Shown: one piece after another, positions 8,427 to 48,088 of the stretch
Layout of the letters: each line of letters begins with the position of its first letter
Numbering within the stretch: position 1 is the first letter of the stretch
Virus record (IMG/VR): IMGVR_UViG_3300021180_000001
Coordinates: 1-54,031 of that record
Length of the DNA: 54,031 bases
Source of the DNA: a virus
Lineage: Duplodnaviria; Caudoviricetes
Strand: one strand, 5' to 3'
Notes under the pieces: generated by a model
What the model was told of the DNA's origin: nothing
Database searches by the model: none
The model's input: the letters and a program-made list of their open reading frames with translations, nothing else
Position numbers and translations under genes: made by a program

Positions 8427-8639
8427 ATGGCTGAAGCCGTTAATAAGATTGAAGACCACTTAACACGTTTAAAAGAAGAATTGCAAAAAGGCGTTACTTA
8501 TTTAAATGAGCTTGATAATGCGATTAAAAAGCTTAGGAACGACCGAATAATCTCTCAAAAAAATATCGATACTATTAATGGTGCAATTCAGGCTTATGCT
8601 GAATCTGTTCGTTTAATTAATGAAAAACCTCAAGGATAA
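8427..8639 (+). CDS. Small coiled-coil protein
   Basis: AGGAG RBS; heptad pattern. Confidence 0.65.
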   Translation: MAEAVNKIEDHLTRLKEELQKGVTYLNELDNAIKKLRNDRIISQKNIDTINGAIQAYAESVRLINEKPQG

Positions 8640-35744: not shown

Positions 35745-36011
35745 ATGAAAAAAATATTTAAAGTTACCGAAAAGATACTTGATGTAAAGATACCTATATT
35801 TAATACTATATTAGAATATATTAAAAATAAGGGATTTACTCAAACGAAAGCAGGTAATGAATTAGAAGTCGCTCAATGTGAAATATCAAAATTTAAGAAT
35901 AGAAAATATGAACATTTTTCTTTAGAAAGATTATTTAGATTTTTAAAGAGAATCGGGTATAATGTGGAGATTCATTTGAAGGGTAAGGAAGAAAAAAATG
36001 AGAGAGATTAA
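35745..36011 (+). CDS. XRE-family HTH regulator (HigA/HTH_37-like)
   Basis: TQTKAGNELEVAQCEISKFKN...FSLERLFRFLKRIGYNVEI; GAGGA RBS before ATG 35745. Confidence 0.8.
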   Translation: MKKIFKVTEKILDVKIPIFNTILEYIKNKGFTQTKAGNELEVAQCEISKFKNRKYEHFSLERLFRFLKRIGYNVEIHLKGKEEKNERD

Positions 36012-36177
36012 GTTTCAAATAGTAGATAAATATGAAGTAGAAGTTCCATTCCTAGAGAAAAAAGTGGAAAAATATAGATTATTTAGTTTTTTAAAAAGAA
36101 TGGGATATAATGTAAAAGTTCATTTAAAACAGATTAAGTTTAAAATACTAGGTAAAAATAAAATAGAGGAAAAATAG
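35998..36177 (+). CDS. 59-aa protein carrying a copy of the XRE C-terminal segment (not in ORF track)
   Basis: MREIKFQIVDK...RLFSFLKRMGYNVKVHLK. Confidence 0.6.
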   Translation: MREIKFQIVDKYEVEVPFLEKKVEKYRLFSFLKRMGYNVKVHLKQIKFKILGKNKIEEK

Positions 36178-36187
36178 GAATTATTTT

Positions 36188-36367
36188 ATGAAAAAAGTAA
36201 ATATAGATTTTATGGAAATGGAAAGAAGAATGCTTTATTCAAGAAGAACAACTAAAAAAAATAGAGAAAAGAAAATAAGCTTGAAAAATGAGGAAAATAA
36301 TGATGTGTTTATTTCAATGCAGAAACATGGAAAATGGGTAAATCCTAATTTTATTAAGAATGCTTAA
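36188..36367 (+). CDS. Small basic hypothetical protein (59 aa)
   Basis: Fills the gap; TAATG coupling to the next ORF. Confidence 0.5.
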   Translation: MKKVNIDFMEMERRMLYSRRTTKKNREKKISLKNEENNDVFISMQKHGKWVNPNFIKNA

Positions 36368-36567
36368 TGAAGATAGTATGTCAAAATTGTCATTCATCAG
36401 ATTTTATAGAAGTATCTAGCACAATGAAATTGGAAGATTTTGTAAATGATTTCGAACATAAGTATTATACCTTAATCTGTAATAAATGTAAGATATATAC
36501 AGAGTTAGATGGTAAGGATAGAATTGAACAGCAAAAGGTAATAGGAGAGAAAAATGGTTCACTTTGA
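36367..36567 (+). CDS. Zn-ribbon protein
   Basis: CQNC...CNKC. Confidence 0.65.
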   Translation: MKIVCQNCHSSDFIEVSSTMKLEDFVNDFEHKYYTLICNKCKIYTELDGKDRIEQQKVIGEKNGSL

Positions 36568-37477
36568 AGAATTAAATGACGGAAGTAATAAAAGGAAAGT
36601 ATTATTTAATCAACAAAATTCTGTAAAATCGTTAATAAAAGACTTTATAGATGCCAGATGGCCTGTTCTGATAGAAGGTCCTACTGGAATAGGTAAGAAT
36701 TATCTTGTAGAAGTTCTTGCGGAAGAAGAATCTAAAAAAATTATCCGAGTAAATTTGAATGTAAATGTTTCTCAGGAAGACTTATGGGGCCAAAATGTCC
36801 TCATTAAAGATGGAGAAGCATCTATTATTAAATTTAAAGATGGACCTGTAGTAAATGCTATTAAGAATGGATATTGGCTTTTATTAGATGAAATAAATGC
36901 TGCATTGCCAGAAGTATTGTTTTCATTACATGCGTTATTAGAAAGAAATAAGAAAGAAATTTATGTTCCAATTTTACAAGATAATTTACAGGTTCACGAA
37001 GAGTTCAGAGTTATAGCAACTATGAATCCATCTGATGAATATTTTGGAACTAGAAGTCTAAATCAGGCATTCTTAAGTAGATTTATGATAGTTGAAATGG
37101 GAATTCCTTCATTATCAGATATGGCCATTATACTAAAAGAATTTTATACAGATAAAGAAATAGAGACGACTGTTTTTGTGTTGACAAAGTTAATAGGGGA
37201 GTTAAATAACTGGAAAATTAAAATGAATATCTCTATTAGAGATTTTGAAAAAGTTCTAGTTTTGTTGAAGACAGATGGATTGTATATATCAGATCACTTA
37301 GCCTCTATATTTAGAGATTATATTAGATTACTTCCAGAAAAAGCTCTAGAAACTTTTAATAAAAATAAATTTGAAAAAAATGAAAAAGAAATGGGAGCTT
37401 TAGGAAAATTCCTAAAAAATCCAGAAAAATATATAAGTTTGATTGAAATGCTTGAAAAATCTATGGAAAAATCATGA
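36554..37477 (+). CDS. MoxR-type AAA+ ATPase (CbbQ/NorQ/CobS-like)
   Basis: Walker A GPTGIGKN, Walker B LLLDEIN, FRVIATMNP, LNQAFLSRF. Confidence 0.9.
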   Translation: MVHFEELNDGSNKRKVLFNQQNSVKSLIKDFIDARWPVLIEGPTGIGKNYLVEVLAEEESKKIIRVNLNVNVSQEDLWGQNVLIKDGEASIIKFKDGPVVNAIKNGYWLLLDEINAALPEVLFSLHALLERNKKEIYVPILQDNLQVHEEFRVIATMNPSDEYFGTRSLNQAFLSRFMIVEMGIPSLSDMAIILKEFYTDKEIETTVFVLTKLIGELNNWKIKMNISIRDFEKVLVLLKTDGLYISDHLASIFRDYIRLLPEKALETFNKNKFEKNEKEMGALGKFLKNPEKYISLIEMLEKSMEKS

Positions 37478-38328
37478 ATCCAACTATACTTTTGAAATTA
37501 AGGAAATTATTCCAAGTTAATACAGCACCATTATTATTAGCTGGACAACCACGCGGAAAAACTATCAGCAGTTTTTGTTTAGGAAAGGCTTTAGTTAATT
37601 CTAAAAATATTTATAATAGATTTATAGATAAAACATTAGAAGAAACTTATAAGGTTGTTATATTAATTGATGCAAGTGGTAGCAGAACTAATGGGCATCC
37701 TTCCGAAAAAGATAGTAAACATATAACCAAGCAAATAATAGAAATGTATTATAGTTTAAAAATAATTGTTGGAAAAGAGAATTTAAAAATTTATTTATTT
37801 AATCGAGTAATTGAAGAAGCATCAAAAATATTAGGGATAAAAATATTTTCTTATACAAACATTAGAGAGTTTACTATGGATTTAGGAGTAAAACAAGCAG
37901 AAGAAGCGAATAAAAAATTATGTCATTGGATGATTATGAAAAATGGAAGAGAAGGAGCTAATTGTGGTGGGAATCATGATGGATATGCCTTAGATTTTAT
38001 TTCTAAGCTTATGTGGTGGGGAAGTTTACCGAATAATAGAAAGTTAATTATTCATATTTCCGATGGACGACCTTCTTGTGATTATCCACATTGTGGATTA
38101 CCTGGATGTTTTCAGAGTACTGAAGAATTAGAAATAGATTATAAATATGTTGTTAAAAATTTATTAGAAAATAAGTTTAAATTATGTGGTTTAGGAGTAG
38201 ATAGAGAAATGGATGAATATTATGGAAAGGAAAATTGTGTGGAAACAAGTGAAAAACCTCAGAAAATGTTGGAAGATTTTATAGAATTATTTTCAAGTCA
38301 GATTAAGGAAAATAGGAGAAGTGTATGA
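37474..38328 (+). CDS. VWA-domain partner (CobT/NorD-like)
   Basis: MIDAS ILIDASGS, GGNHDG, IHISDGRP; coupled to the AAA+ gene. Confidence 0.85.
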   Translation: MNPTILLKLRKLFQVNTAPLLLAGQPRGKTISSFCLGKALVNSKNIYNRFIDKTLEETYKVVILIDASGSRTNGHPSEKDSKHITKQIIEMYYSLKIIVGKENLKIYLFNRVIEEASKILGIKIFSYTNIREFTMDLGVKQAEEANKKLCHWMIMKNGREGANCGGNHDGYALDFISKLMWWGSLPNNRKLIIHISDGRPSCDYPHCGLPGCFQSTEELEIDYKYVVKNLLENKFKLCGLGVDREMDEYYGKENCVETSEKPQKMLEDFIELFSSQIKENRRSV

Positions 38329-38615
38329 TGAAAATCATAGAATTCCTTTGGGAAGAAGATTCTGAATTATTATGTGTAAAATGCGAAGTTGAAAAAATTG
38401 AAGTTAATTTTAACTTTAGCAAGAAAACAATTGAAGACCGTATTGTTCATAAAAGAGAGGATATAATTGCTCATAGAGAAGAGGGCGTCACAATAGGGCA
38501 ATGGAAGACACTTGTTGAAGATAGAATAAAAAAACTTCTTGAATCAGATGAAGATTTTAGAAATGACCTACTAAAAACTTTGAAAAAGGAACTTTCGAAA
38601 AAAATATCAATATAA
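38325..38615 (+). CDS. Hypothetical protein
   Basis: AGGAG RBS; coupled. Confidence 0.6.
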   Translation: MMKIIEFLWEEDSELLCVKCEVEKIEVNFNFSKKTIEDRIVHKREDIIAHREEGVTIGQWKTLVEDRIKKLLESDEDFRNDLLKTLKKELSKKISI

Positions 38616-38622
38616 AGAATAG

Positions 38623-38817
38623 ATGGATAAATTTTTAGATAATGGGATTATTTTATGTGATTCTCCTCTCCTAGGAAAATTAAATTCTAAAACTGAAAAT
38701 TTGTTATCGTATAGCATGAAAATCATAAAGAGGGATGAATTACATTTGATACCATTTGTGCCGAACGAATATCAGATAGAATGGAAATTAATGGAATACA
38801 GATGGATAAATTTTTAG
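38623..38817 (+). CDS. MDKFLDNGIILCD-leader protein 1
   Basis: Shared 15-aa leader; KIIKRDELHLIPFVPNEYQ segment. Confidence 0.6.
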   Translation: MDKFLDNGIILCDSPLLGKLNSKTENLLSYSMKIIKRDELHLIPFVPNEYQIEWKLMEYRWINF

Positions 38818-39200
38818 ATAACGGAATTATTTTATGTGATTCTCCTAAAATTAAAAGGAAGACTTTTTATTTTCATCAAGTTAAACCTTCAGGAATAAAG
38901 GTTATAATAACTTGTCGTAGTCTGGAATTATCAGTTTTTGAATGTGGACATTATGGACATCCTATAACATGGGACAAATTTTATTTCAAAAAAAATGAAG
39001 AAGATGAAAAAGAATATATTTTATGGTGTAAAAATGAATCAGATTTTATAACTATTAAAGAATTTGAAAAAAGATATAATGTTTCTGTAGTGATTGAAAA
39101 TATAGGGCCTGAAGAAAATGTAGAAACTCAGATACCACCTGTTCTGAAATTCCTTCAATTCAGAAATCCAGAAGTTCAGAAATGGGAAAACCCTTATTAA
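38802..39200 (+). CDS. MDKFLDNGIILCD-leader protein 2
   Basis: Leader starts at ATG 38802 (ORF track start 38781). Confidence 0.6.
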   Translation: MDKFLDNGIILCDSPKIKRKTFYFHQVKPSGIKVIITCRSLELSVFECGHYGHPITWDKFYFKKNEEDEKEYILWCKNESDFITIKEFEKRYNVSVVIENIGPEENVETQIPPVLKFLQFRNPEVQKWENPY

Positions 39201-39215
39201 ATAAGGAGAGGATAG

Positions 39216-39551
39216 ATGAATAAATTTTTAGATAATGGGATTATTTTGTGTGATACTCCAGAAAATATAAGAGATGGAGAATCTATTGATTGTAAAGAAT
39301 ATATAATAGAAAAAGTAGAAATTGAACCTGAAATGAGGATGTTAGGTCTTTCTCAAATGCTACCTGCCTACCTACCATCTGTTGGGCTTGATTTAAGCGA
39401 ATATTCTCTTGAATCTGCTATCCTTGCAATTCAGCAATACAGAAATGAGAAAACTCTTATTAAATCAAGAAGTAGAAAATCTACCACTATTACAGCAGAT
39501 GCTGAAGATAAGATAAGAGTGTTAGGTCTTTCTCAAATGCGAGCGCCTTAG
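39216..39551 (+). CDS. MDKFLDNGIILCD-leader protein 3, mosaic of major-capsid fragments
   Basis: VEIEPEMRMLGLSQ and PSVGLDLSEYSLESAILAIQQYR match this genome's major capsid protein; AAGGAG RBS. Confidence 0.75.
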   Translation: MNKFLDNGIILCDTPENIRDGESIDCKEYIIEKVEIEPEMRMLGLSQMLPAYLPSVGLDLSEYSLESAILAIQQYRNEKTLIKSRSRKSTTITADAEDKIRVLGLSQMRAP

Positions 39552-39635
39552 TAAAAATATGTTGATTTTATATCACAATGATATATACTTCTGTTTTAGT
39601 ATGGTTTGTTTATAGACTAAACAGTAAATAGGTAA

Positions 39636-39992
39636 TTGGTCATGGGTACTGATTATGGTAACAGTAGAGAAGCAAGGATAAATAGACAGAAAGGAAAAAA
39701 AACTGCAATTGAATTGGCAGAAAATTTCATTAAGGAGTTTTCTAAGTTTAAAGAGGAATGGGGACCAAATACTAGGAAAATGATGGGAACATGGTTTTGG
39801 AAAGAAGCGGGATATAATTCCTTGCTCACGTTGGATAAATTAATGGATAATGAAGTAAATGATGTTATGAAACTGGCTTTTAAAAGGAAAATCATGAAAA
39901 TATATGAAATAGGAAAGTATTTATTGAATGATGTGGATAAAGGGTTAAAGAAAAAGGCTGATAAACTTATTGAAAAGATAGAGGGAAAATAA
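39636..39992 (+). CDS. Hypothetical protein
   Basis: ORF downstream of a TTGATT-N16-TATACT promoter-like sequence. Confidence 0.55.
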   Translation: MVMGTDYGNSREARINRQKGKKTAIELAENFIKEFSKFKEEWGPNTRKMMGTWFWKEAGYNSLLTLDKLMDNEVNDVMKLAFKRKIMKIYEIGKYLLNDVDKGLKKKADKLIEKIEGK

Positions 39993-39998
39993 ATATTT

Positions 39999-40259
39999 AT
40001 GAGCGAAAATAAAGCAAATGAAAACAAAGAAATATTGAAAAAAAGATTGGTAGAATATTTAAATGAAACCATCAAACAAGTGGAAAATGATGAAACAGAG
40101 TATGTATTGGTATTAAAATCAGTATTAAAAGCAGGTGATAGTTGTATTCATCCTGTAACATGTTTTTTGAGAAACTCAGGTCCAAAAATGATGGCTGCTG
40201 TGATGGGATATCTTGACCTTATGAAGAATGAATTAATAGAACATTTAACTAAAGATTAA
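39999..40259 (+). CDS. Tandem paralog family member 1
   Basis: EYL..I.QV.NDE.EY...HP.TCFL...VMGYL. Confidence 0.7.
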   Translation: MSENKANENKEILKKRLVEYLNETIKQVENDETEYVLVLKSVLKAGDSCIHPVTCFLRNSGPKMMAAVMGYLDLMKNELIEHLTKD

Positions 40260-40274
40260 AGAGGAAAATTATTT

Positions 40275-40496
40275 ATGCATGGGAATAAAGAGAGAGTCTT
40301 AGAATATTTAGAGGAAGCTATTAGACAGGTGAAAAATGATGAAGTAGAATATATATTATTATTAAAATCATCTAATAATATTGTTCATCCTACAACATGT
40401 TTTCTTAAAGACACAACTTCGAAAGTTACGACTTCTGTCATGGGGTATCTTGAAATTATGAAAAATGACTTAATAGAATCTTTAATCAAAAACTAA
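40275..40496 (+). CDS. Tandem paralog family member 2
   Basis: Clear paralog of 39999. Confidence 0.7.
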   Translation: MHGNKERVLEYLEEAIRQVKNDEVEYILLLKSSNNIVHPTTCFLKDTTSKVTTSVMGYLEIMKNDLIESLIKN

Positions 40497-40511
40497 AGAG
40501 AGGGATTATTT

Positions 40512-40808
40512 ATGATATATGAATTTCTTAAGGCCAAAATGAAAAAAAATGAACTTTTTATGGAAAATAGGAAAAAAGATGCTATAAAAGAGGTTATAAG
40601 TAAACTAGAATCTCTTATGAAAAAAGTTAAAAATAATAAGGTAAAATATGTAGTTATAATTGAAGATAATGATGAAGGAAATTCCGCAGAATTATTTACA
40701 ATTTCATGTAGTAAATTTGACTTGGGTAGTGCAATGGGGTTGATGGATGTATTAAAAAAGAGCATTATGAAAGCTATAAACAAAGGGTCTAAATATGAAA
40801 AAACTTAG
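40512..40808 (+). CDS. Tandem paralog family member 3 (diverged)
   Basis: KVKNNKVKYVVI...SAMGLMDVLK aligns with members 1-2. Confidence 0.6.
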   Translation: MIYEFLKAKMKKNELFMENRKKDAIKEVISKLESLMKKVKNNKVKYVVIIEDNDEGNSAELFTISCSKFDLGSAMGLMDVLKKSIMKAINKGSKYEKT

Positions 40809-40840
40809 AAAAGATATAGTTTAAAGGTAAGGAAAAAGAA

Positions 40841-41128
40841 ATGAAATACCCAAAACTTAGAAAAGATATAGATTGGAAAGAGGAGGATGGCTATATTGTA
40901 CTTTTTCCTATTTGTATTTATCAAAATTCTATTTTAAAAAAAGAACATCCACTCACTGAATTTCCATGCGATAACTGTAATCAACTTTGCTGGCTTACTC
41001 CTAATTCTGAAGAGCTTTCTCGTATTAATCCTGAAATGAAAAAATATTGTCTGACTTGTATGGATAAACTTGGTTTTCTTGATAATGAATTAGAAATTAT
41101 TGAAATATCTGAAAAAGAAGATGAATAG
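40841..41128 (+). CDS. Cys-rich (CxxC...CxxC) hypothetical protein
   Basis: CDNC, CLTC. Confidence 0.6.
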   Translation: MKYPKLRKDIDWKEEDGYIVLFPICIYQNSILKKEHPLTEFPCDNCNQLCWLTPNSEELSRINPEMKKYCLTCMDKLGFLDNELEIIEISEKEDE

Positions 41129-41196
41129 CATTACGGGTGGGGTTATAGTTGGAGCGGGAGTAAAAAATAATGGCTTACAAAAATAGAGGTAAATAA

Positions 41197-41376
41197 GTGA
41201 GCTATTATTTTCTTTTTCGCTTTGGTTGTGGTGAAGGAAATTACTTTAGTAATGGTGATGGATATGGAAATGGTTATGGTTATGATAGTGATTTATGGGT
41301 CTATGATGACAATGGCTTTGATAATAACAGTGGTGGTGATAATGGGTATGGAGATGGTGACATAGTATGCGATTAA
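41197..41376 (+). CDS. Gly-rich cassette G1 (59 aa, GTG start, not in ORF track)
   Basis: MSYYFLFRFG...GYGDGDIVCD; GAGGT RBS; ends in ATGCGATTAA. Confidence 0.6.
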   Translation: MSYYFLFRFGCGEGNYFSNGDGYGNGYGYDSDLWVYDDNGFDNNSGGDNGYGDGDIVCD

Positions 41377-41423
41377 ATTGTTCAAGAATAAAAAATAATG
41401 ATTTATAAAAGGAATATTGGCAT

Positions 41424-41633
41424 ATGCTATTAAATTATTTTGATGGCTTTGAATTTGTCTGGCGTATTGGTTGTGGTTATGACTATAGTGATATTAATTG
41501 GTTTGGCAATGGCTTTGGAAATGGTAGTGGGTATGGATTTCCCTTTAATAGTGGTGATGGTTTTGGGAATGGTGATTATGGAGACGGAATTGGCTATGAC
41601 TGTGATGATATAGTATGCGAAATGGCGATATAA
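41424..41633 (+). CDS. Gly-rich cassette G2
   Basis: MLLNYFDG leader; GxG repeats. Confidence 0.65.
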   Translation: MLLNYFDGFEFVWRIGCGYDYSDINWFGNGFGNGSGYGFPFNSGDGFGNGDYGDGIGYDCDDIVCEMAI

Positions 41634-41662
41634 TATGCAAAGCCATTCAAGAGTAAAAAATA

Positions 41663-42154
41663 ATGGCTTACAAAAAAGGTGAATCTGGTAATCCTTTAGG
41701 CAGACCTGCTGGCCTTGCTGAAATAAATTGGAAGGCGCTAAAAGCGTGTCCTGAAGTAATGGATGAGTTAATTTCCTTAGCTTTAGATAGAGATGTGGAT
41801 AATAAAATAAGAATAGCTGCCATGAAAGAGGTTTTAGATAGAGGAATGGGTAAATCTATTCAATCTATTAGACTTGAGGATAAAACGGTCCAAGAACCAT
41901 CTAAAATGGCTACGCAGGACTTAGAATTGATGCTTCAAGGTGGAATAGATATTCTTAAAGAACAAATACGCCAACAGGTTAAAAGTGAGATTTTAGGTAG
42001 TCAAATGATTATCGAAAAAAAAAGTATTACATCAGATAATAATGTGGTAAGCTACGAAGGTGATGTAGTTAACATAGAAGTTAACGAAAACGAAATGGGT
42101 GAAATGAAACATAGATTGGAATGTAACTTAACAGAGGAGAATAGTCATGAGTAA
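41663..42154 (+). CDS. terS: Terminase small subunit (probable)
   Basis: N-terminal YKKGESGNPLGRP and RIAAMKEVLDRGMGK motifs typical of this TerS type. Confidence 0.75.
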   Translation: MAYKKGESGNPLGRPAGLAEINWKALKACPEVMDELISLALDRDVDNKIRIAAMKEVLDRGMGKSIQSIRLEDKTVQEPSKMATQDLELMLQGGIDILKEQIRQQVKSEILGSQMIIEKKSITSDNNVVSYEGDVVNIEVNENEMGEMKHRLECNLTEENSHE

Positions 42155-42425
42155 AGAGATATTTATTGCAGTATTGGATAGAGGATGGGTATTCATTGGA
42201 ATAAGAGAAAAAGAAATTATAGAAGGAAAACACGTATGGAGATTAAAAAATTGTCATTGCATTAGGAGATGGGGAACTACCCAAGGAATTGGAGAAATCA
42301 GTATACATGGTCCTACCAAAGAAACAGTTCTCGATAAATGTAATGATTTAGAAATAGGATACAGGTCAGTTATTTTTTGGATAAAGTGTAATCAGGAGAA
42401 ATGGGAAAATATAATATGCAGTTAA
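42147..42425 (+). CDS. DUF6948-like protein, possible Sm/LSm-like fold
   Basis: IAVLDRGWVFIG...LKNCHCIRRWGTTQGIGEISIHGP; Sm1/Sm2-like hydrophobic pattern. Confidence 0.65.
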   Translation: MSKEIFIAVLDRGWVFIGIREKEIIEGKHVWRLKNCHCIRRWGTTQGIGEISIHGPTKETVLDKCNDLEIGYRSVIFWIKCNQEKWENIICS

Positions 42426-42601
42426 GCAGTCTAGATGGAAATGGCGGCGGCGACGGATATGATAATGGTGATGGATGGGGTTATGGTTGGAGCGATGGAC
42501 GAGGTCGTGGGGATGGATATAGCAGCGATTATGGCTGTGGTTACGGCAGTCTTTCTGGAAATGGTTATGGAGATGGTTGTGGCGAAATAGTATCCGATTA
42601 G
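42416..42601 (+). CDS. Gly-rich cassette G3
   Basis: MQLSSLDG; ATGCAGTTAA overlap with the DUF6948-like stop. Confidence 0.65.
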   Translation: MQLSSLDGNGGGDGYDNGDGWGYGWSDGRGRGDGYSSDYGCGYGSLSGNGYGDGCGEIVSD

Positions 42602-42656
42602 ATGAAGATAATTTTGCTATGGCCATAGTAATGACTGCTGTGGCTATAGAGCCTGA
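42592..42656 (+). pseudogene. Decayed Gly-rich cassette
   Basis: Junction mutated to ATCCGATTAG; frameshifted FCYGHSNDCCGY remnant. Confidence 0.5.
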
Positions 42657-42676
42657 CAGAAATGGAAAAATATAAT

Positions 42677-42940
42677 ATGAATTTAAGCTATTTTAATGGT
42701 TATGGATTTATCGGTGATGGTCGCTTTAGCGATAATAATGGCCATAATGATGGTTATGGCTTTAGTAATGGCGATGGATATGGGGACGGTAGTGGGTGTG
42801 GCGGCGATGGCTATGGTGGTGGTTTTGGATTTGGCTATGACTGCGATGGTTATGGAAATGGAAATGGGTATGGATATGGTTTTAGTAATGGTGATGGATG
42901 GGGTTATGGTATCGGTAATGGACCTGGCACATGCGATTAA
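42677..42940 (+). CDS. Gly-rich cassette G4 (alternative start 42662)
   Basis: MNLSYFNG...GTCD. Confidence 0.65.
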   Translation: MNLSYFNGYGFIGDGRFSDNNGHNDGYGFSNGDGYGDGSGCGGDGYGGGFGFGYDCDGYGNGNGYGYGFSNGDGWGYGIGNGPGTCD

Positions 42941-43143
42941 GCAGTTTAGATTATTTTTGTGATTTTCATATTAGTCACGAATATGGAAATGGCTATGGAT
43001 GTGGCAGTGATGGTTATGGATTTATCACTGGTCATGGATATGGCAGTCCTTATGGACCTATTTATGGAGATGGCTATGGAGATGGAAATTTCTATGGCAA
43101 CTGCCTTGGTGATGGGCATGGTAATGGCTTTGGATATATATGA
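42931..43143 (+). CDS. Gly-rich cassette G5
   Basis: ATGCGATTAA junction; MRLSSLDY. Confidence 0.7.
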   Translation: MRLSSLDYFCDFHISHEYGNGYGCGSDGYGFITGHGYGSPYGPIYGDGYGDGNFYGNCLGDGHGNGFGYI

Positions 43144-43364
43144 GCTTAAGCAGTTTAGATGAGTGGTTGCTGCATGGATATATTCAATATGGATTTAATA
43201 ATGGTGATGGACATGGTAATGGCAGTGGCTATAGTGGCGATGGCTGGGGTGGTGGTTTTCAATATGGTTTTGGCTGTGATGGTTATGGTTGTAGTTATTT
43301 CTTGGGTAATGGATATGGTTGGGGCAATGGTTGGGATGAAAATGTGGATATATTAAAGGAATGA
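43140..43364 (+). CDS. Gly-rich cassette G6
   Basis: ATGA overlap; MSLSSLDEW. Confidence 0.65.
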   Translation: MSLSSLDEWLLHGYIQYGFNNGDGHGNGSGYSGDGWGGGFQYGFGCDGYGCSYFLGNGYGWGNGWDENVDILKE

Positions 43365-43410
43365 TTACGGAAGTGATTTTGGACATAATATAGGATGATG
43401 GCGACATAGT

Positions 43411-43614
43411 ATGCGATTAGATAGTTTTAGTGATGGCTTTGGTGATGGTTATGGATATGCAAATGGCAATGGATATGGAAACGGTGACGATAATACCTGC
43501 TGTGGATATAAAGATTGTGATGGATATAGATATGGAGATGGTTATGGCAGTGGTAGTGGAAATAACTATGGGTTTAATTGTATAGAGGAAAATAACTTTT
43601 GCTTATGCGATTAA
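43411..43614 (+). CDS. Gly-rich cassette G7
   Basis: MRLDSFSD...LCD. Confidence 0.7.
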   Translation: MRLDSFSDGFGDGYGYANGNGYGNGDDNTCCGYKDCDGYRYGDGYGSGSGNNYGFNCIEENNFCLCD

Positions 43615-43907
43615 TCACTTTAGAGGACTGGTTACGGAATGATTATAATAAATATGGATATGGTAATGGCGATGGTTATGGTGGTGGATATAAGAGTAAC
43701 AGTGATTTCATTAATTATGATGGATACGGCGACGGAAGTGATTATGGGTTTGGTGACGGTGATGATGGAGATGGCGACGGCGATGGTTATGGATATTTAA
43801 ATGGTGATGGATATGGATATGGATGTGGTTATAGTTCCCAAGGCAATGGCTGGGGCGATGGAGACGAAACCGGATATGGAACTATATGTGGAACTCTATG
43901 CGATTAA
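43605..43907 (+). CDS. Gly-rich cassette G8
   Basis: ATGCGATTAA junction; MRLITLEDW...TLCD. Confidence 0.7.
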   Translation: MRLITLEDWLRNDYNKYGYGNGDGYGGGYKSNSDFINYDGYGDGSDYGFGDGDDGDGDGDGYGYLNGDGYGYGCGYSSQGNGWGDGDETGYGTICGTLCD

Positions 43908-44128
43908 TCTATTTCGATGAATTTGGTTTTGGTGATGGTTTTGACTTTGGTGGTGGCAGTGGCTTTGGCGATAATATTGGAGATGGTTGGGGCTTTGGTG
44001 ATGGATATGTGGTTATGAATAAAAGTTTTGGATGGGGCCTTGGTAACGGTTGTGGAGAAGATAATGGAAATGGCTATGGTGATAGTTACAATGGAGATAA
44101 CGGTGACGGAGACGGACCATGCGATTAA
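43898..44128 (+). CDS. Gly-rich cassette G9
   Basis: ATGCGATTAA junction; MRLIYFDE...GPCD. Confidence 0.7.
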   Translation: MRLIYFDEFGFGDGFDFGGGSGFGDNIGDGWGFGDGYVVMNKSFGWGLGNGCGEDNGNGYGDSYNGDNGDGDGPCD

Positions 44129-44358
44129 ATCATTTAGAATATTTTTGCTTTGACTTTTTCCAGGGCTATGGTTTTAAGGATAGTAATTGTCGTGGAAGTG
44201 GTCATGGAAATAGTCATGGAACTGGTTTTGGTGATGGATTGTGTTATGGCCATATTAATGGTAATGGTAATGGGTGCGGTGATGGTTTTAGTGATGGAAA
44301 TGGCTTTGGCGATGGTGAAAATGGAGATGACGGTGATGGAGATGGCGCATGCGATTAA
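44119..44358 (+). CDS. Gly-rich cassette G10
   Basis: ATGCGATTAA junction; MRLNHLEY...GACD. Confidence 0.7.
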   Translation: MRLNHLEYFCFDFFQGYGFKDSNCRGSGHGNSHGTGFGDGLCYGHINGNGNGCGDGFSDGNGFGDGENGDDGDGDGACD

Positions 44359-44597
44359 TTCATTTCGATGATTTTGGATGTGATGGTTATAGTTTTGGTT
44401 TTGGCGAAGGGTATGGAGTTAAAACTGGTAGCGGATATGGGGACGGTTGGAGATATGGTTATGCTTTTGGAAATGGTTTAGGGGGTGGTTATGGATATGG
44501 ATTTGGTAGTGGTGATGGTGGCATGGATCATGGTGATAGTGGTATGACTTATGGAAATAACTATGGCGATGGATATGGATATGGAGACTTAGTATGA
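44349..44597 (+). CDS. Gly-rich cassette G11
   Basis: ATGCGATTAA junction; MRLIHFDD. Confidence 0.7.
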   Translation: MRLIHFDDFGCDGYSFGFGEGYGVKTGSGYGDGWRYGYAFGNGLGGGYGYGFGSGDGGMDHGDSGMTYGNNYGDGYGYGDLV

Positions 44598-44818
44598 GAT
44601 TAAGTAATAATGGTTTTAATCTTAGCTCAGATTGTTTTTATGGATGGAGTGGTAGTGATGGAGCTGGTTGTGGTTATGGGTTTGGTAATGGCGATGGGTG
44701 GGGAGATAGCTGGGAAAGTGGTTTTGGTTTTGGGTATGGTTTTAATGATGGCGATGGTATGGTCTTGAATATGGCTTACGACAGTGGCAATGGAGATGCC
44801 AATATAATATGCGAGTAA
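44594..44818 (+). CDS. Gly-rich cassette G12
   Basis: ATGAGATTAA; MRLSNNGF...IICE. Confidence 0.7.
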   Translation: MRLSNNGFNLSSDCFYGWSGSDGAGCGYGFGNGDGWGDSWESGFGFGYGFNDGDGMVLNMAYDSGNGDANIICE

Positions 44819-45009
44819 GCAATTTAGATGGTGTTGGTAGAGGATATGGATTTAGTGACGGTGATGGTTATGGAGACGGATATGGCTTTGATGGTGATGG
44901 ATATGGCTGTGGCTATGGTTTTGGTGGTGATGGTTTTGGTAAAGGTCATCGATATGGCAATATTTTTAGCGATGATGATGGATATGATTATGAGGATTGG
45001 AACGGATAG
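44809..45009 (+). CDS. Gly-rich cassette G13
   Basis: ATGCGAGTAA; MRVSNLDG. Confidence 0.7.
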   Translation: MRVSNLDGVGRGYGFSDGDGYGDGYGFDGDGYGCGYGFGGDGFGKGHRYGNIFSDDDGYDYEDWNG

Positions 45010-45020
45010 GACAGCATAAT

Positions 45021-45257
45021 ATGAAATTAATATATTTTGAAAGTTTTGATTATTGTAGCTGTATTGGTTTCACTGGCTTTGGTGACGGATATGGGTATGG
45101 ATATGGTACTGGTGAGGGAAATGGGCTTAGTGAAGGTCTTACAAATATCTTTGGTAGTAATGGTGATTCATATCGGTATCGATATGGAATAGCATATGCA
45201 ACGCGAGATGGTGATGGTTATGGCATTGGCTATGGAAATGGTTTAGATGATGATTGA
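45021..45257 (+). CDS. Gly-rich cassette G14 (premature TGA; frame continues YGYGDIVCN to 45287)
   Basis: MKLIYFES leader at ATG 45021. Confidence 0.65.
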   Translation: MKLIYFESFDYCSCIGFTGFGDGYGYGYGTGEGNGLSEGLTNIFGSNGDSYRYRYGIAYATRDGDGYGIGYGNGLDDD

Positions 45258-45277
45258 TATGGATATGGTGACATAGT

Positions 45278-45425
45278 ATGCAATTAATCCATGGTGATGA
45301 TTATGGAGACGGTTATGGTGATGGCTGGGGAAATGGAAAGATTTGGGGAGATGACAACGATATGGAGATGATGATTATAGGCTTATATCTATGATAATGG
45401 AGATGGCGACATAGCATGCGATTAA
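45278..45425 (+). pseudogene. Frameshifted Gly-rich cassette G15
   Basis: MQLIHGDDYGDG... slips frame near 45360; the GDIACD tail is in another frame. Confidence 0.55.
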
Positions 45426-45694
45426 ATTATTATGATGGCTTTGGATTTGTTTTTGATTGGACTTGTGGCTATGGTTTTGTCGATGGCGATGGCTATGGCT
45501 TTGGTAGTGGGTTTATGGTTCTGAATAAATATTTTATGTGGGGTTATGGTAGCAGTTATGGAGAAGATAATGGAAATGGTTATGGCGATGGATGGGGAGG
45601 TAAACGTGGTTACGGAGATGGAAATGATAACGGTATTGGCGATGGTAATGGAAATGGATTTTGTGACCCAATAGAAATGGCTATAAGATATTAA
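45416..45694 (+). CDS. Gly-rich cassette G16
   Basis: ATGCGATTAA junction; MRLNYYDG...EMAIRY. Confidence 0.7.
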   Translation: MRLNYYDGFGFVFDWTCGYGFVDGDGYGFGSGFMVLNKYFMWGYGSSYGEDNGNGYGDGWGGKRGYGDGNDNGIGDGNGNGFCDPIEMAIRY

Positions 45695-45700
45695 TTTAAT

Positions 45701-45907
45701 ATGCGATTAAATGGCAGCATCTTTATCTTTGGATGTGGTTGGGGTAATGGATTTGGCTACGGCCATAATAATGGCAATGGTCATGGAAATGGTTGTACTT
45801 ATGATAGTTATGCCATAGGAAATAGCTGGGGTGACGGAAGTGGTTTGGGTGACGGCAATAATGACGATGGAAACGGGAATGGAGACGGAAGCACAACATG
45901 GGATTAA
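45701..45907 (+). CDS. Gly-rich cassette G17
   Basis: ATGCGATTAA; MRLNGSIF...TTWD. Confidence 0.7.
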   Translation: MRLNGSIFIFGCGWGNGFGYGHNNGNGHGNGCTYDSYAIGNSWGDGSGLGDGNNDDGNGNGDGSTTWD

Positions 45908-46134
45908 ATTATTTAGATTATTTTTTCTTTGATTTTTACCACGGCTATGGTTTTAAGGATAACCATGGCTATGGAAATAGTCATGGAAATGGCTTGGGTT
46001 ATGGAATTGATTATGGTCATATTAATGGTAATGGTTATGGGGGTGGCGATGGTTTTAGTGATGGATACGGTTTTGGCGATGGTGAAGACGGAGATGACGG
46101 TGATGGAAATGGTAATGGAGACGGTACATATTAA
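45898..46134 (+). CDS. Gly-rich cassette G18 (close paralog of G10)
   Basis: ATGGGATTAA; MGLNYLDYF. Confidence 0.7.
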   Translation: MGLNYLDYFFFDFYHGYGFKDNHGYGNSHGNGLGYGIDYGHINGNGYGGGDGFSDGYGFGDGEDGDDGDGNGNGDGTY

Positions 46135-46135
46135 T

Positions 46136-46312
46136 ATGCGATTAAATTATTTCCATGACTTTCACTTTATTGGTTCTGGGTATGGCTATGGATTTCATGG
46201 TGGTGATGGTCTTGGAAATGGTATGGGTTATGGAAATAGTGAGGGAGAAGGCTGGGGTGATGGCGAAGAAGATGTTGGTAATTGTGGTGGATGTGGTAAT
46301 ATGGAATGGTGA
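46136..46312 (+). CDS. Gly-rich cassette G19
   Basis: ATGCGATTAA at 46136; MRLNYFHD...NMEW. Confidence 0.7.
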   Translation: MRLNYFHDFHFIGSGYGYGFHGGDGLGNGMGYGNSEGEGWGDGEEDVGNCGGCGNMEW

Positions 46313-46324
46313 TTTGGAGGTACA

Positions 46325-46378
46325 ATGATTAGCGCGCTTATTTTGCTTATTTTTTTGCTTATAGCATGGAATGCATAA
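46325..46378 (+). CDS. 17-aa hydrophobic peptide MISALILLIFLLIAWNA
   Basis: Strong GGAGG RBS. Confidence 0.45.
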   Translation: MISALILLIFLLIAWNA

Positions 46379-46395
46379 TAGCATGGGGTGTATAA

Positions 46396-46560
46396 ATGAT
46401 GTTTAATTTTAGTAATTTTGAAATTATTATTGGTTGTATTCTTTTATATTTATGTATGTTCCATTTTATCATGTTACCTTTTATTAAGAAAAGATTTGAA
46501 CTTTCTGAGGCCAGAATTTCAGTTTTAGAATATAAAATTAAACAGATAATGAAAGAATAA
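46396..46560 (+). CDS. Small single-TM protein (54 aa, not in ORF track)
   Basis: IIIGCILLYLCMFHFIMLPFI followed by a short coiled coil. Confidence 0.55.
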   Translation: MMFNFSNFEIIIGCILLYLCMFHFIMLPFIKKRFELSEARISVLEYKIKQIMKE

Positions 46561-46770
46561 ATGAATATTATCAAGTTTTTATTTATATTGATAGCTCAAT
46601 TGTTTATTTTATTTCTTTTGCTTATTGTAGCACGTGTTAGTATAATTAATTATTCCAATATAGAAATGATAAAGGAAAGAATTCACAAAATAGAATTGAA
46701 ATTAGAAAAAGATGATATACAGAGATATAGGGATTTATTCTCACCCATAATAGATATAGATAAGGAGTAA
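46561..46770 (+). CDS. Small single-TM protein
   Basis: FLFILIAQLFILFLLLIVA TM segment followed by a coiled coil. Confidence 0.6.
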   Translation: MNIIKFLFILIAQLFILFLLLIVARVSIINYSNIEMIKERIHKIELKLEKDDIQRYRDLFSPIIDIDKE

Positions 46771-46777
46771 ATAGGAA

Positions 46778-47098
46778 ATGAAAGTAAAGGTCTCACAATA
46801 TATGGATTCTCAGAATCCTAGCCATCCATATTATGATACTTTAATTAAAACAATTGGAGATTGGAACATTGTAGAACATTTGGTATTAAGATGTTCGGAA
46901 AAATTGGAAATGATTTTCTTATTAGTTGAGAATGATAACAATTATATGTTTTGTATAGCCTCTTATTTGGGAGTAGGTTTAAATGAACCAGGTCCTTATG
47001 GATTAGAGAAATGGAAATATGAAAATTGTATTAAAGATATAAAAGAAAAAATGATAGAATCAAGAGCACAAAAAAAGGAGCAAGAAAATGTTCATTAG
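46778..47098 (+). CDS. Hypothetical protein
   Basis: ORF in a tightly packed operon. Confidence 0.6.
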   Translation: MKVKVSQYMDSQNPSHPYYDTLIKTIGDWNIVEHLVLRCSEKLEMIFLLVENDNNYMFCIASYLGVGLNEPGPYGLEKWKYENCIKDIKEKMIESRAQKKEQENVH

Positions 47099-47366
47099 TT
47101 TTTTAAAAAATCTCTTTTGTCAGGAAAGTTATAATCCAATTGATGGACTTAAAAAACGTCTTGCGCAAGGATTGGAACTTTTGGAAGATTTGGGAGAACT
47201 TAAGAAAAATTTAGAAAATTCTTATGCAAAAACTTTAGAACAAAATAGGATTAAATATGAAAATCGTAAAGAAGAGCTTAAAAAGTCAGAAGAATGTATA
47301 TATGGAATATTAGAACCGTTGGAGCGTATTATTAAAGAATTTGAAAATATGAATAAGGATAAATGA
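47088..47366 (+). CDS. Hypothetical coiled-coil protein
   Basis: AAGGAG RBS. Confidence 0.6.
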   Translation: MFISFLKNLFCQESYNPIDGLKKRLAQGLELLEDLGELKKNLENSYAKTLEQNRIKYENRKEELKKSEECIYGILEPLERIIKEFENMNKDK

Positions 47367-47369
47367 CAT

Positions 47370-47738
47370 ATGTTTAACTTAAAAGAGGATATAAAACCTT
47401 TTATTAGAATTGTAGAAGGAATATGTGAACTATTTGAAAAAGAGATTTACAAAGAAGATTTACATCTTATTACGAAAATTATGTTAGTGAATATTTTTCT
47501 TGAATTGGAAAGTAAAATTTCGGAAAATTTAGAATTATATCTTCGTATTGATGAAAATGAAGAGATTAAGAAACTCAAAGTAAGAATTAGTAAGATAGAT
47601 ATATATCTTTCTGAATTTGGAATAGAGTTTTCAAAAAAAGCAGAAAATGCAATAAATACGTTATTTTCAGAATTAAATAAAAATAAAGGAAGTTTTGCAA
47701 GTTTAAAAGAAAGTAAAGAAAAGGAGATTATTTATTAA
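47370..47738 (+). CDS. Hypothetical protein
   Basis: Operonic ORF. Confidence 0.6.
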   Translation: MFNLKEDIKPFIRIVEGICELFEKEIYKEDLHLITKIMLVNIFLELESKISENLELYLRIDENEEIKKLKVRISKIDIYLSEFGIEFSKKAENAINTLFSELNKNKGSFASLKESKEKEIIY

Positions 47739-48088
47739 TGAAAGAAAAATATAAATTGATGTATTCAGTAGATATTATATTTCCAACTACTAAAGACCAT
47801 TTTACGAGATTAGAAGTAGAGGAAGCTGTAAAATCAGATGGACGTATGGCCGCTTGTGATGCTGTGGTATTAGTTAGCATAATTAGATATGATGATAGAA
47901 ATGACTTCGCAATCCTTTCAGGAGATGGAGAAAATAAGAGCCAAAGCCTTCCAGTAGAAGATTGGTTTTCATTGATGGTTTTTGTGGCTCATAAGTTAAA
48001 AGACTATGATTTGACAAAATTGAAGACTGATGAATTGAAAGCTTATCAAACTTTTATGGAGATTTATCATGAACATAATGAACAGTAA
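47738..48088 (+). CDS. Hypothetical protein
   Basis: TAATG coupling; AAGGAG RBS. Confidence 0.6.
   Translation: MKEKYKLMYSVDIIFPTTKDHFTRLEVEEAVKSDGRMAACDAVVLVSIIRYDDRNDFAILSGDGENKSQSLPVEDWFSLMVFVAHKLKDYDLTKLKTDELKAYQTFMEIYHEHNEQ

Follow-up and report, generated by a model that had tools for sequence, protein, structure and literature searches.

Sites of programmed −1 ribosomal frameshifting are known, among them that of the phage tail-assembly chaperone G/GT. Genes can also be joined by a direct overlap of stop and start codons, and the review PMC12548453 gives the chloroplast ndhC-ndhK pair as a natural example with a spacing of −10 nucleotides (nt). A joint of this kind recurs in the virus record IMGVR_UViG_3300021180_000001 (Duplodnaviria; Caudoviricetes), a complete record of 54,031 bp with terminal repeats present, which was analysed over its whole length and is called the window below. 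Between positions 41197 and 46312 the window carries an array of small open reading frames (ORFs), here called cassettes, which encode acidic, glycine-rich proteins and are joined at many places by a 10-nt motif, ATGCGATTAA. With a probability of roughly 70%, this motif is the place where the stop and start codons of successive copies of a tandemly amplified gene overlap, a joint inherited from a gene pair in which a DUF6948-type gene is followed by a gene for an acidic protein with glycine at alternating positions (Gly-X).

The joint and its probable ancestry

The 10-mer occurs ten times in the window, always on the + strand, where 0.12 copies are expected, and ten copies were reached in none of 100 shuffles. 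Nine of them (41367, 42931, 43605, 43898, 44119, 44349, 45416, 45701 and 46136) are exactly where the initial annotation, made from the letters alone, had placed them. The tenth, at 8518–8527, lies outside the array, in frame inside ORF 8427–8639, where it is neither start nor stop, and is read here as a chance occurrence. All 11 variant sites of the same annotation were found again, ten with one or two mismatches and 42677 (ATGAATTTAA) with three. Matches with up to two mismatches stand at chance level across the window (85 found, 84.97 expected), and 20 of the 85 are on the + strand inside the 4.8-kb array. The prefix GACATAGT, which had been noticed before several of the variants, is exact at 41367, 43411 and 45278 and near-exact at 45416, 42592 and 44594.

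The key to the origin of the motif is a gene for a protein of 92 amino acids (aa) that lies within the array and is called the partner gene below. Its own terminal joint, ATGCAGTTAA, matches the cassette joints at 7–9 of 10 positions in all 18 compared. Extended to 31 nt, the partner joint shows 26 matches at 44809 and 24 at 42677, while 2000 random array positions gave a mean of 8.7 and a maximum of 20. Since the partner gene ends in the same joint and the joints are alike, the 10-mer is traced to an ancestral partner/Gly-X overlap that was copied by tandem duplication. The ancestral unit would have been a DUF6948-type gene followed by an acidic Gly-X gene starting within the last codons of the first. 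The Gly-X gene would then have been duplicated repeatedly together with the overlap, each copy ending with codons inherited from the end of the DUF6948 gene (I-I-C-S-stop turning into I-V-C-D-stop) and the next copy starting 7 nt before the preceding stop. Cassette tails such as IVCD and IICE would be descendants of the partner's last codons. The motif is better conserved than the rest of the units because it is read in two frames and holds both a start and a stop. The initial annotation overlooked the array as an amplified partner of a DUF6948 gene; its suggestion of translational coupling is reasonable, and its frameshift and its special microhomology find no such support.

The 92-aa protein is read here as a divergent member of DUF6948. 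Two database homologues match this family only, weakly (E ~0.02), and 18 of 37 aligned relatives, 30–49% identical to the 92-aa protein, match it at E ≤ 0.01, with a best value of 1.1e-7 and no other family. In the ESM Atlas, 30 of 30 feature matches are to DUF6948 (score 0.95), and the structural template-modelling (TM) scores to DUF6948 clusters are 0.74–0.85. A comparison of the sequence profile with the PDB returned nothing below E 0.3.

Relatives of the 92-aa protein are encoded at 39 loci in viral contigs, and these loci reveal a recurrent two-gene module. A Gly-X ORF, defined as a Gly-alternating acidic ORF passing our own filter, is present at 33 of them and starts within −43 to +1 nt of the partner's stop at 29. 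The two genes overlap in 28 of these 29 loci, always by 3n+1 nt, which places the Gly-X gene in the −1 frame. In the examples read (L015, L016 and L022), its ATG or GTG lies inside the conserved Lys-Trp codons of the partner, as does the window's ATG at 42401. The window has the same layout, for its ORF 42401/42416–42601 overlaps the partner stop (42423–42425) by 25 or 10 nt. The Gly-X gene is single at 30 of the 33 loci, and the remaining loci have two, three and five copies. Apart from the pair itself, no neighbour is conserved across the 39 loci. One locus belongs to the cultured Rheinheimera phage vB_RspM_Barba1A (L055, 2417–2944), in which a DUF6948-type gene, gp018, is followed by gp017, a strict Gly-X protein of 69 aa; both are annotated as "hypothetical protein". 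In 115 isolates of Barba, alignments of the 584-nt locus to the record extend over 584, 590 or 614 nt, differences that may reflect in-frame variation in repeat length. A full-text literature search found no paper on DUF6948, and word searches found no literature on such arrays.

Layout of the array

The array consists of 20 small ORFs on the + strand, of which 18 encode 58–100 aa, one is a 13-aa stub and one a broken unit of 38 aa. The partner gene and one further gene lie among them. The features are as follows, in order of position.

41158–41183, + strand: leader and start of gene 41663, first copy; an exact 26-nt direct repeat of 41651–41676.
41197–41376, + strand: cassette 1, 59 aa, with a GTG start and an atypical head; it ends in ...IVCD, with its stop in the 10-mer at 41367.
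41367–41408, + strand: stub of 13 codons, a cassette head (MRLN) continuing into a copy of the 41663 leader.
~41384–41410, + strand: leader of gene 41663, third copy, diverged.
41424–41633, + strand: cassette 3, 69 aa, with a degraded tail joint (...DDIVCEMAI).
41663–42154, + strand: gene of 163 aa with a weak DUF5681-like N-terminus (E 6.1e-5, under the Pfam cut-off).
42147–42425, + strand: the 92-aa divergent DUF6948-type partner gene, ending in ...EKWENIICS, with its stop in the joint ATGCAGTTAA at 42416.
42401–42601, + strand: first cassette behind the partner gene, with two possible starts, 42401 or 42416.
42592–42676, + strand: remnant whose joint start is lost (ATC), followed by a short remnant of a cassette head and a duplicate of roughly 20 nt from the 3' end of the partner gene.
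42662–42940, + strand: cassette of 87 aa from 42677 or 92 aa from 42662; the 22 nt before the start match the partner's 3' end at 18 of 22 positions.
42931–43143, + strand: cassette, 70 aa, with a 10-nt overlap upstream and an ATGA overlap downstream.
43140–43364, + strand: cassette, 74 aa, tail frame-broken; a ...GDIVCD-stop remnant lies at 43394–43420 in another frame.
43411–45009, + strand: unbroken chain of seven overlapping cassettes starting at 43411, 43605, 43898, 44119, 44349, 44594 and 44809.
45021–45257, + strand: cassette, 78 aa, tail frame-broken; a YGYGDIVCN-stop remnant lies at 45278.
45278–45394, + strand: broken cassette, 38 aa, with a tail remnant ...GDGDIACD-stop at 45416.
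45416–45694, + strand: cassette, 92 aa, a paralogue of 43898 (73% nucleotide identity).
45701–45907, + strand: cassette, 68 aa, with a 10-nt overlap with the next cassette.
45898–46134, + strand: cassette, 78 aa, a paralogue of 44119 (80% nucleotide identity).
46136–46312, + strand: last cassette, 58 aa, whose end lacks the joint motif.

The cassette proteins contain 30% Gly, 13% Asp and 10% Tyr and are uniformly acidic (isoelectric point about 4.1). Their identity to the first cassette is 33–44%, and they share a head of the form M-R-L-[NSI]-x-[FL]-[DE] and mostly a Cys-Asp tail. In three paralogue pairs, the ratio of nonsynonymous to synonymous substitutions (dN/dS) is 0.35–0.44 in the Gly-X frame versus 0.67–1.5 in the +1 frame, and the Gly-X frame therefore appears to be read as protein.

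Eleven joints overlap, nine by 10 nt, one of which links the DUF6948 gene to the first cassette, and two by 4 nt (ATGA, at 43140 and 44594). Of the two possible starts of that first cassette, 42401 is an ATG inside the partner's Lys-Trp codons and gives a 25-nt overlap, as in the relatives, while 42416 gives the 10-nt overlap. The initial annotation had each motif read C-D-stop for the upstream gene and M-R-L for the next at most junctions. This describes six of the nine exact sites, where a full upstream ORF ends and the following one begins; at the other three (45416, 45701 and 46136), what the TAA terminates is a start-less stretch of just 7–14 codons. The −1 frame steps that it also described run along every overlapped chain, the longest being the seven genes of 43411–45009, and they arise because the overlap is 3n+1 (10) nt long.

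The start of the array is arranged differently. The leader of gene 41663, a ribosome site plus start, is present in three copies (41158–41183, ~41384–41410 and 41644–41676), which precede, in this order, a cassette, a cassette and the real gene 41663. By this layout, cassettes 1–3 look like a leader-plus-cassette unit that was tandemly duplicated upstream of 41663. The 163-aa gene itself is not conserved beside the module in relatives, with one weak match in 39 loci.

Searches with the cassettes (Pfam, PHROGs and profiles) returned only low-complexity look-alikes and the window's own proteins. The calcium-binding beta-roll repeats of RTX proteins have the motif GGxGxDxUx. They were rejected as an identity for the cassettes, which do not match the Pfam nonapeptide repeat model; among the 18 cassettes scanned against Pfam at E ≤ 1 there was no RTX family match, and only sub-threshold low-complexity matches (TrAA12 and keratin families) appeared. 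A multi-copy array of precursors of bacteriocins or of ribosomally synthesized and post-translationally modified peptides (RiPPs) was also considered and rejected: families for maturation enzyme, transporter and immunity were not found among 62 ORFs compared with PHROGs, and Pfam searches of the three ORFs adjoining the array and six others gave no maturation, transporter or immunity family. One otherwise unrelated protein found by the cassette search, P0003 (157 aa), has a DUF7666 head (E 2e-30) and a similar GYGDGYG tail, so that Gly-Tyr-Asp tails are attached to more than one kind of head domain.

Alternative explanations of the joint

Several observations weigh against inheritance from a DUF6948/Gly-X pair and expression through the overlaps. 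The window's 92-aa protein has no match to PF22253 (DUF6948) at E ≤ 10, no Pfam model was reached, and its membership in the family is transitive. The cassettes are less strictly Gly-alternating than the Gly-X proteins of the relatives and carry hydrophobic heads. Eight of the 19 cassette starts do not overlap and lie 1 to 75 nt after the end of the preceding ORF, while at least five units are truncated or frame-broken (the 41367 stub, the start-less 42592 remnant and cassettes 43140, 45021 and 45278); with these, part of the array may be decaying. Six of ten cassette proteins looked up (43411, 44119, 44349, 44809, 45416 and 45701) are absent as exact sequences from a collection of 15 billion proteins, in which four other array proteins are present; gene callers therefore skipped the six or called them in another form. 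A usable GGAG lies upstream of about half of the cassettes, and those that bear it may start independently. Finally, PMC12548453 lists −4, −1 and −8 as enriched overlap spacings, −10 not being among them, and reports weaker coupling in reporters once the overlap exceeds 4 nt. Coupling at the 10-nt joints may therefore be inefficient.

The broken units, together with a +1 frame that is likewise open over long stretches and the six of ten cassettes missed by gene callers, would also be expected if the array were mostly decaying repeat DNA, its ORFs open by composition and its motif a role-less relic of recent duplication. The cassettes are old, as their divergence shows, yet start, stop and head are kept at 14–19 of 19 sites. 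In addition, dN/dS falls below 0.5 in the Gly-X frame only, and dozens of unrelated phages retain a gene of this type downstream of their DUF6948 gene. General decay is very improbable on this evidence, and non-coding repeats were considered and rejected. A different role for the motif, proposed in the initial annotation, is that of a preferred crossover point, and this role would keep it uniform. Whole cassettes would be gained, lost and reordered through gene conversion or unequal recombination in the 10-mer and the sequence flanking it, possibly with the YqaJ/RecT system of the phage. The array did grow by duplication, with the pairs 44119/45898 (80%) and 43898/45416 (73%) in the same order, and the joint is the only sequence common to nearly all units. 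Neighbouring joints have flanks with 81% similarity over 90 nt (44064–44153 versus 44294–44383), the 41367 stub breaks off a few nucleotides past the 10-mer, and the phage has YqaJ and RecT genes, which nothing links to the array. The longest exact repeats, however, lie elsewhere, in the gene leader (26 nt) and a cassette body (25 nt); 62 of 69 repeated 16-mers are outside the joints, no repeated 18-mer overlaps a joint, and three 10-mers of the cassette bodies occur 13–15 times versus nine for the motif. Nor do the visible events respect the motif: about 20 nt from the end of the partner gene were carried along in the duplication that gave rise to 42677, cassettes 1–3 are bounded by the three copies of the 41663 leader, and the readable breakpoints of remnants fall about 4 to 25 nt from the 10-mer and not within it. 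The claim of a special microhomology is thus not borne out. Recombination at the joint is unlikely to be what keeps it uniform, and it is retained as a contributing factor because selection would keep only those events that leave whole cassettes.

The same annotation had proposed that a −1 slip at the joint fuses successive cassettes into polyproteins. The geometry would permit this, since each following cassette is read in the −1 frame, which stays open over some 16 nt at the joint, but the signals that direct a programmed slip are missing. An X_XXY_YYZ heptamer is present at none of the joints of the 19 cassettes, and the six found in cassette bodies are at non-homologous places. Of ten joint windows folded, one folds better than its shuffles (43560–43639, z −3.09); the z values of the other nine lie between −0.40 and +1.92, and there is no common structure. 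A profile search of 1.84 billion representatives yielded no fused multi-cassette relatives among its 13 matches, those of 1152 and 3288 aa being left uninspected. Programmed frameshifting at the joint is hardly credible. Inheritance of the stop/start joint from the DUF6948/Gly-X pair accounts for the array without it, and the array genes are read as joined by ordinary co-directional overlap, not by a frameshifting or shuffling device.

Expression, genome context and comparison with known systems

Translational coupling across the joints is plausible from the arrangement of the start sites. The mean Shine-Dalgarno (SD) pairing energy, in kcal/mol for each class of start, is −5.0 for cassette starts and −3.3 for 282 other ATG triplets of the array; 52 other phage genes average −6.45 and random positions −2.0. 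At the overlapped starts 42931, 43140 and 43898 there is almost no SD match (−3.0 to −3.3 kcal/mol). Ribosomes finishing one cassette would restart at the ATG just behind them, by termination and reinitiation. In the ten joint windows folded there is no hairpin common to the joints, and coupling, if it occurs, would therefore proceed by reinitiation rather than by RNA unfolding. In this way a family of disordered acidic proteins, acting alongside the DUF6948 protein or on its behalf, would be expressed in series.

The cassettes are best read as extra, diverged copies of a disordered acidic partner of the DUF6948 protein that would be expressed in series from the overlap chain. A bolder proposal would make the array a self-metering expression device, in which some 20 diverged acidic Gly/Tyr/Asp proteins are produced in a fixed descending gradient from a single entry at the DUF6948 gene, since at each step of termination and reinitiation only some of the ribosomes would go on. 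Copy number and order would be tuned by unequal crossover between joints, giving a heritable, fast-evolving library of disordered decoy or scaffold proteins for host takeover. This proposal is speculative and quite improbable.

Taken alone, the joint is nothing unusual, a gene overlap that tandem duplication has multiplied. It is of use as a marker of how the array grew, each unit having taken with it a copy of the end of the DUF6948 gene. Of this phage gene pair, found in dozens of unrelated contigs (one scan gave 39 loci) and in cultured Rheinheimera phages, the array is the largest amplification seen. Since standard gene callers missed six of ten cassettes, such arrays are under-annotated. 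The seven-gene chain of overlaps would also offer a convenient natural substrate for measuring serial reinitiation.

The rest of the window contains recognizable phage genes, among them those for portal, head and tail proteins, a YqaJ-type exonuclease, a RecT-like protein and the large terminase, whose nearest relatives are those of Roseobacter phages CRP-901 and CRP-902 (44–45% identity). GC skew reaches 0.55–0.61 across 42000–46000, and GC content there is ~0.39–0.40 versus 0.27–0.31 in the flanks, both because of the GGT/GAT/TAT codon repeats of the array. Tandem paralogues are found upstream of the array as well: two ORFs with a common N-terminal ...KFLDNGIILCD... head in the region of 38781–39551 and 39999–40808, and three ORFs in the same region with a common ...EYL.E.I.QV.NDE.EY.L.LKS... 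core. Tandem duplication would thus seem to be frequent in this genome region. Some 4 kb before the array (36554–38328), a 284-aa ORF without a family match lies behind a gene for an AAA_5 (MoxR-type) ATPase. Directly before the large terminase, at a position where a small terminase is the expected product, ORF 51110–51823 matches the OmpA-like transmembrane domain with a score exceeding the Pfam cut-off (E 2.7e-5, 24.4 bits versus 21).

Searches for close relatives of the array gave little. For a comparison of cassette order, megablast of 36000–48000 against 50,697 phage records gave no match, and a scan of viral contigs based on the large terminase (TerL) found nothing. A DNA pattern of two joints occurred at six loci in viral contigs, none of which had Gly-rich ORFs, and all six are taken as chance. 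In metagenomes, the 92-aa protein retrieved a single distant relative (41%). A look-up of sequencing runs for read mapping listed none. A scan for promoters and terminators found nothing above shuffles.

A comparison with described systems places the joint among gene overlaps. Like programmed −1 frameshift sites of the G/GT kind, the array has its downstream frame at −1 relative to the upstream one; unlike them, its joints have neither a slippery heptamer nor a stimulatory structure, and the downstream frame has its own start codon. As in ndhC-ndhK, a translationally coupled overlapping pair cited in PMC12548453, the genes are co-directional, with the downstream ATG a few nucleotides before the upstream stop at a spacing of −10 nt, whereas in the window the overlap is repeated up to seven times serially in one paralogous family and coupling is a plausible prediction.

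The closest counterpart is the DUF6948 + (Gly-X)n module itself, for which no published study was found and of which the array is an unusually large, chained form. In both, directly behind a small gene read as DUF6948-type comes one for an acidic protein with Tyr, Asp and Asn besides a Gly at every other position, and this gene begins, in the −1 frame, before the first has ended. The window differs in having about 20 units, where most relatives have one, and in a partner too divergent for the Pfam model itself. Its copies, moreover, are chained by the inherited overlap, whereas the multiple copies at L015 and L017 lie 0–43 nt apart.

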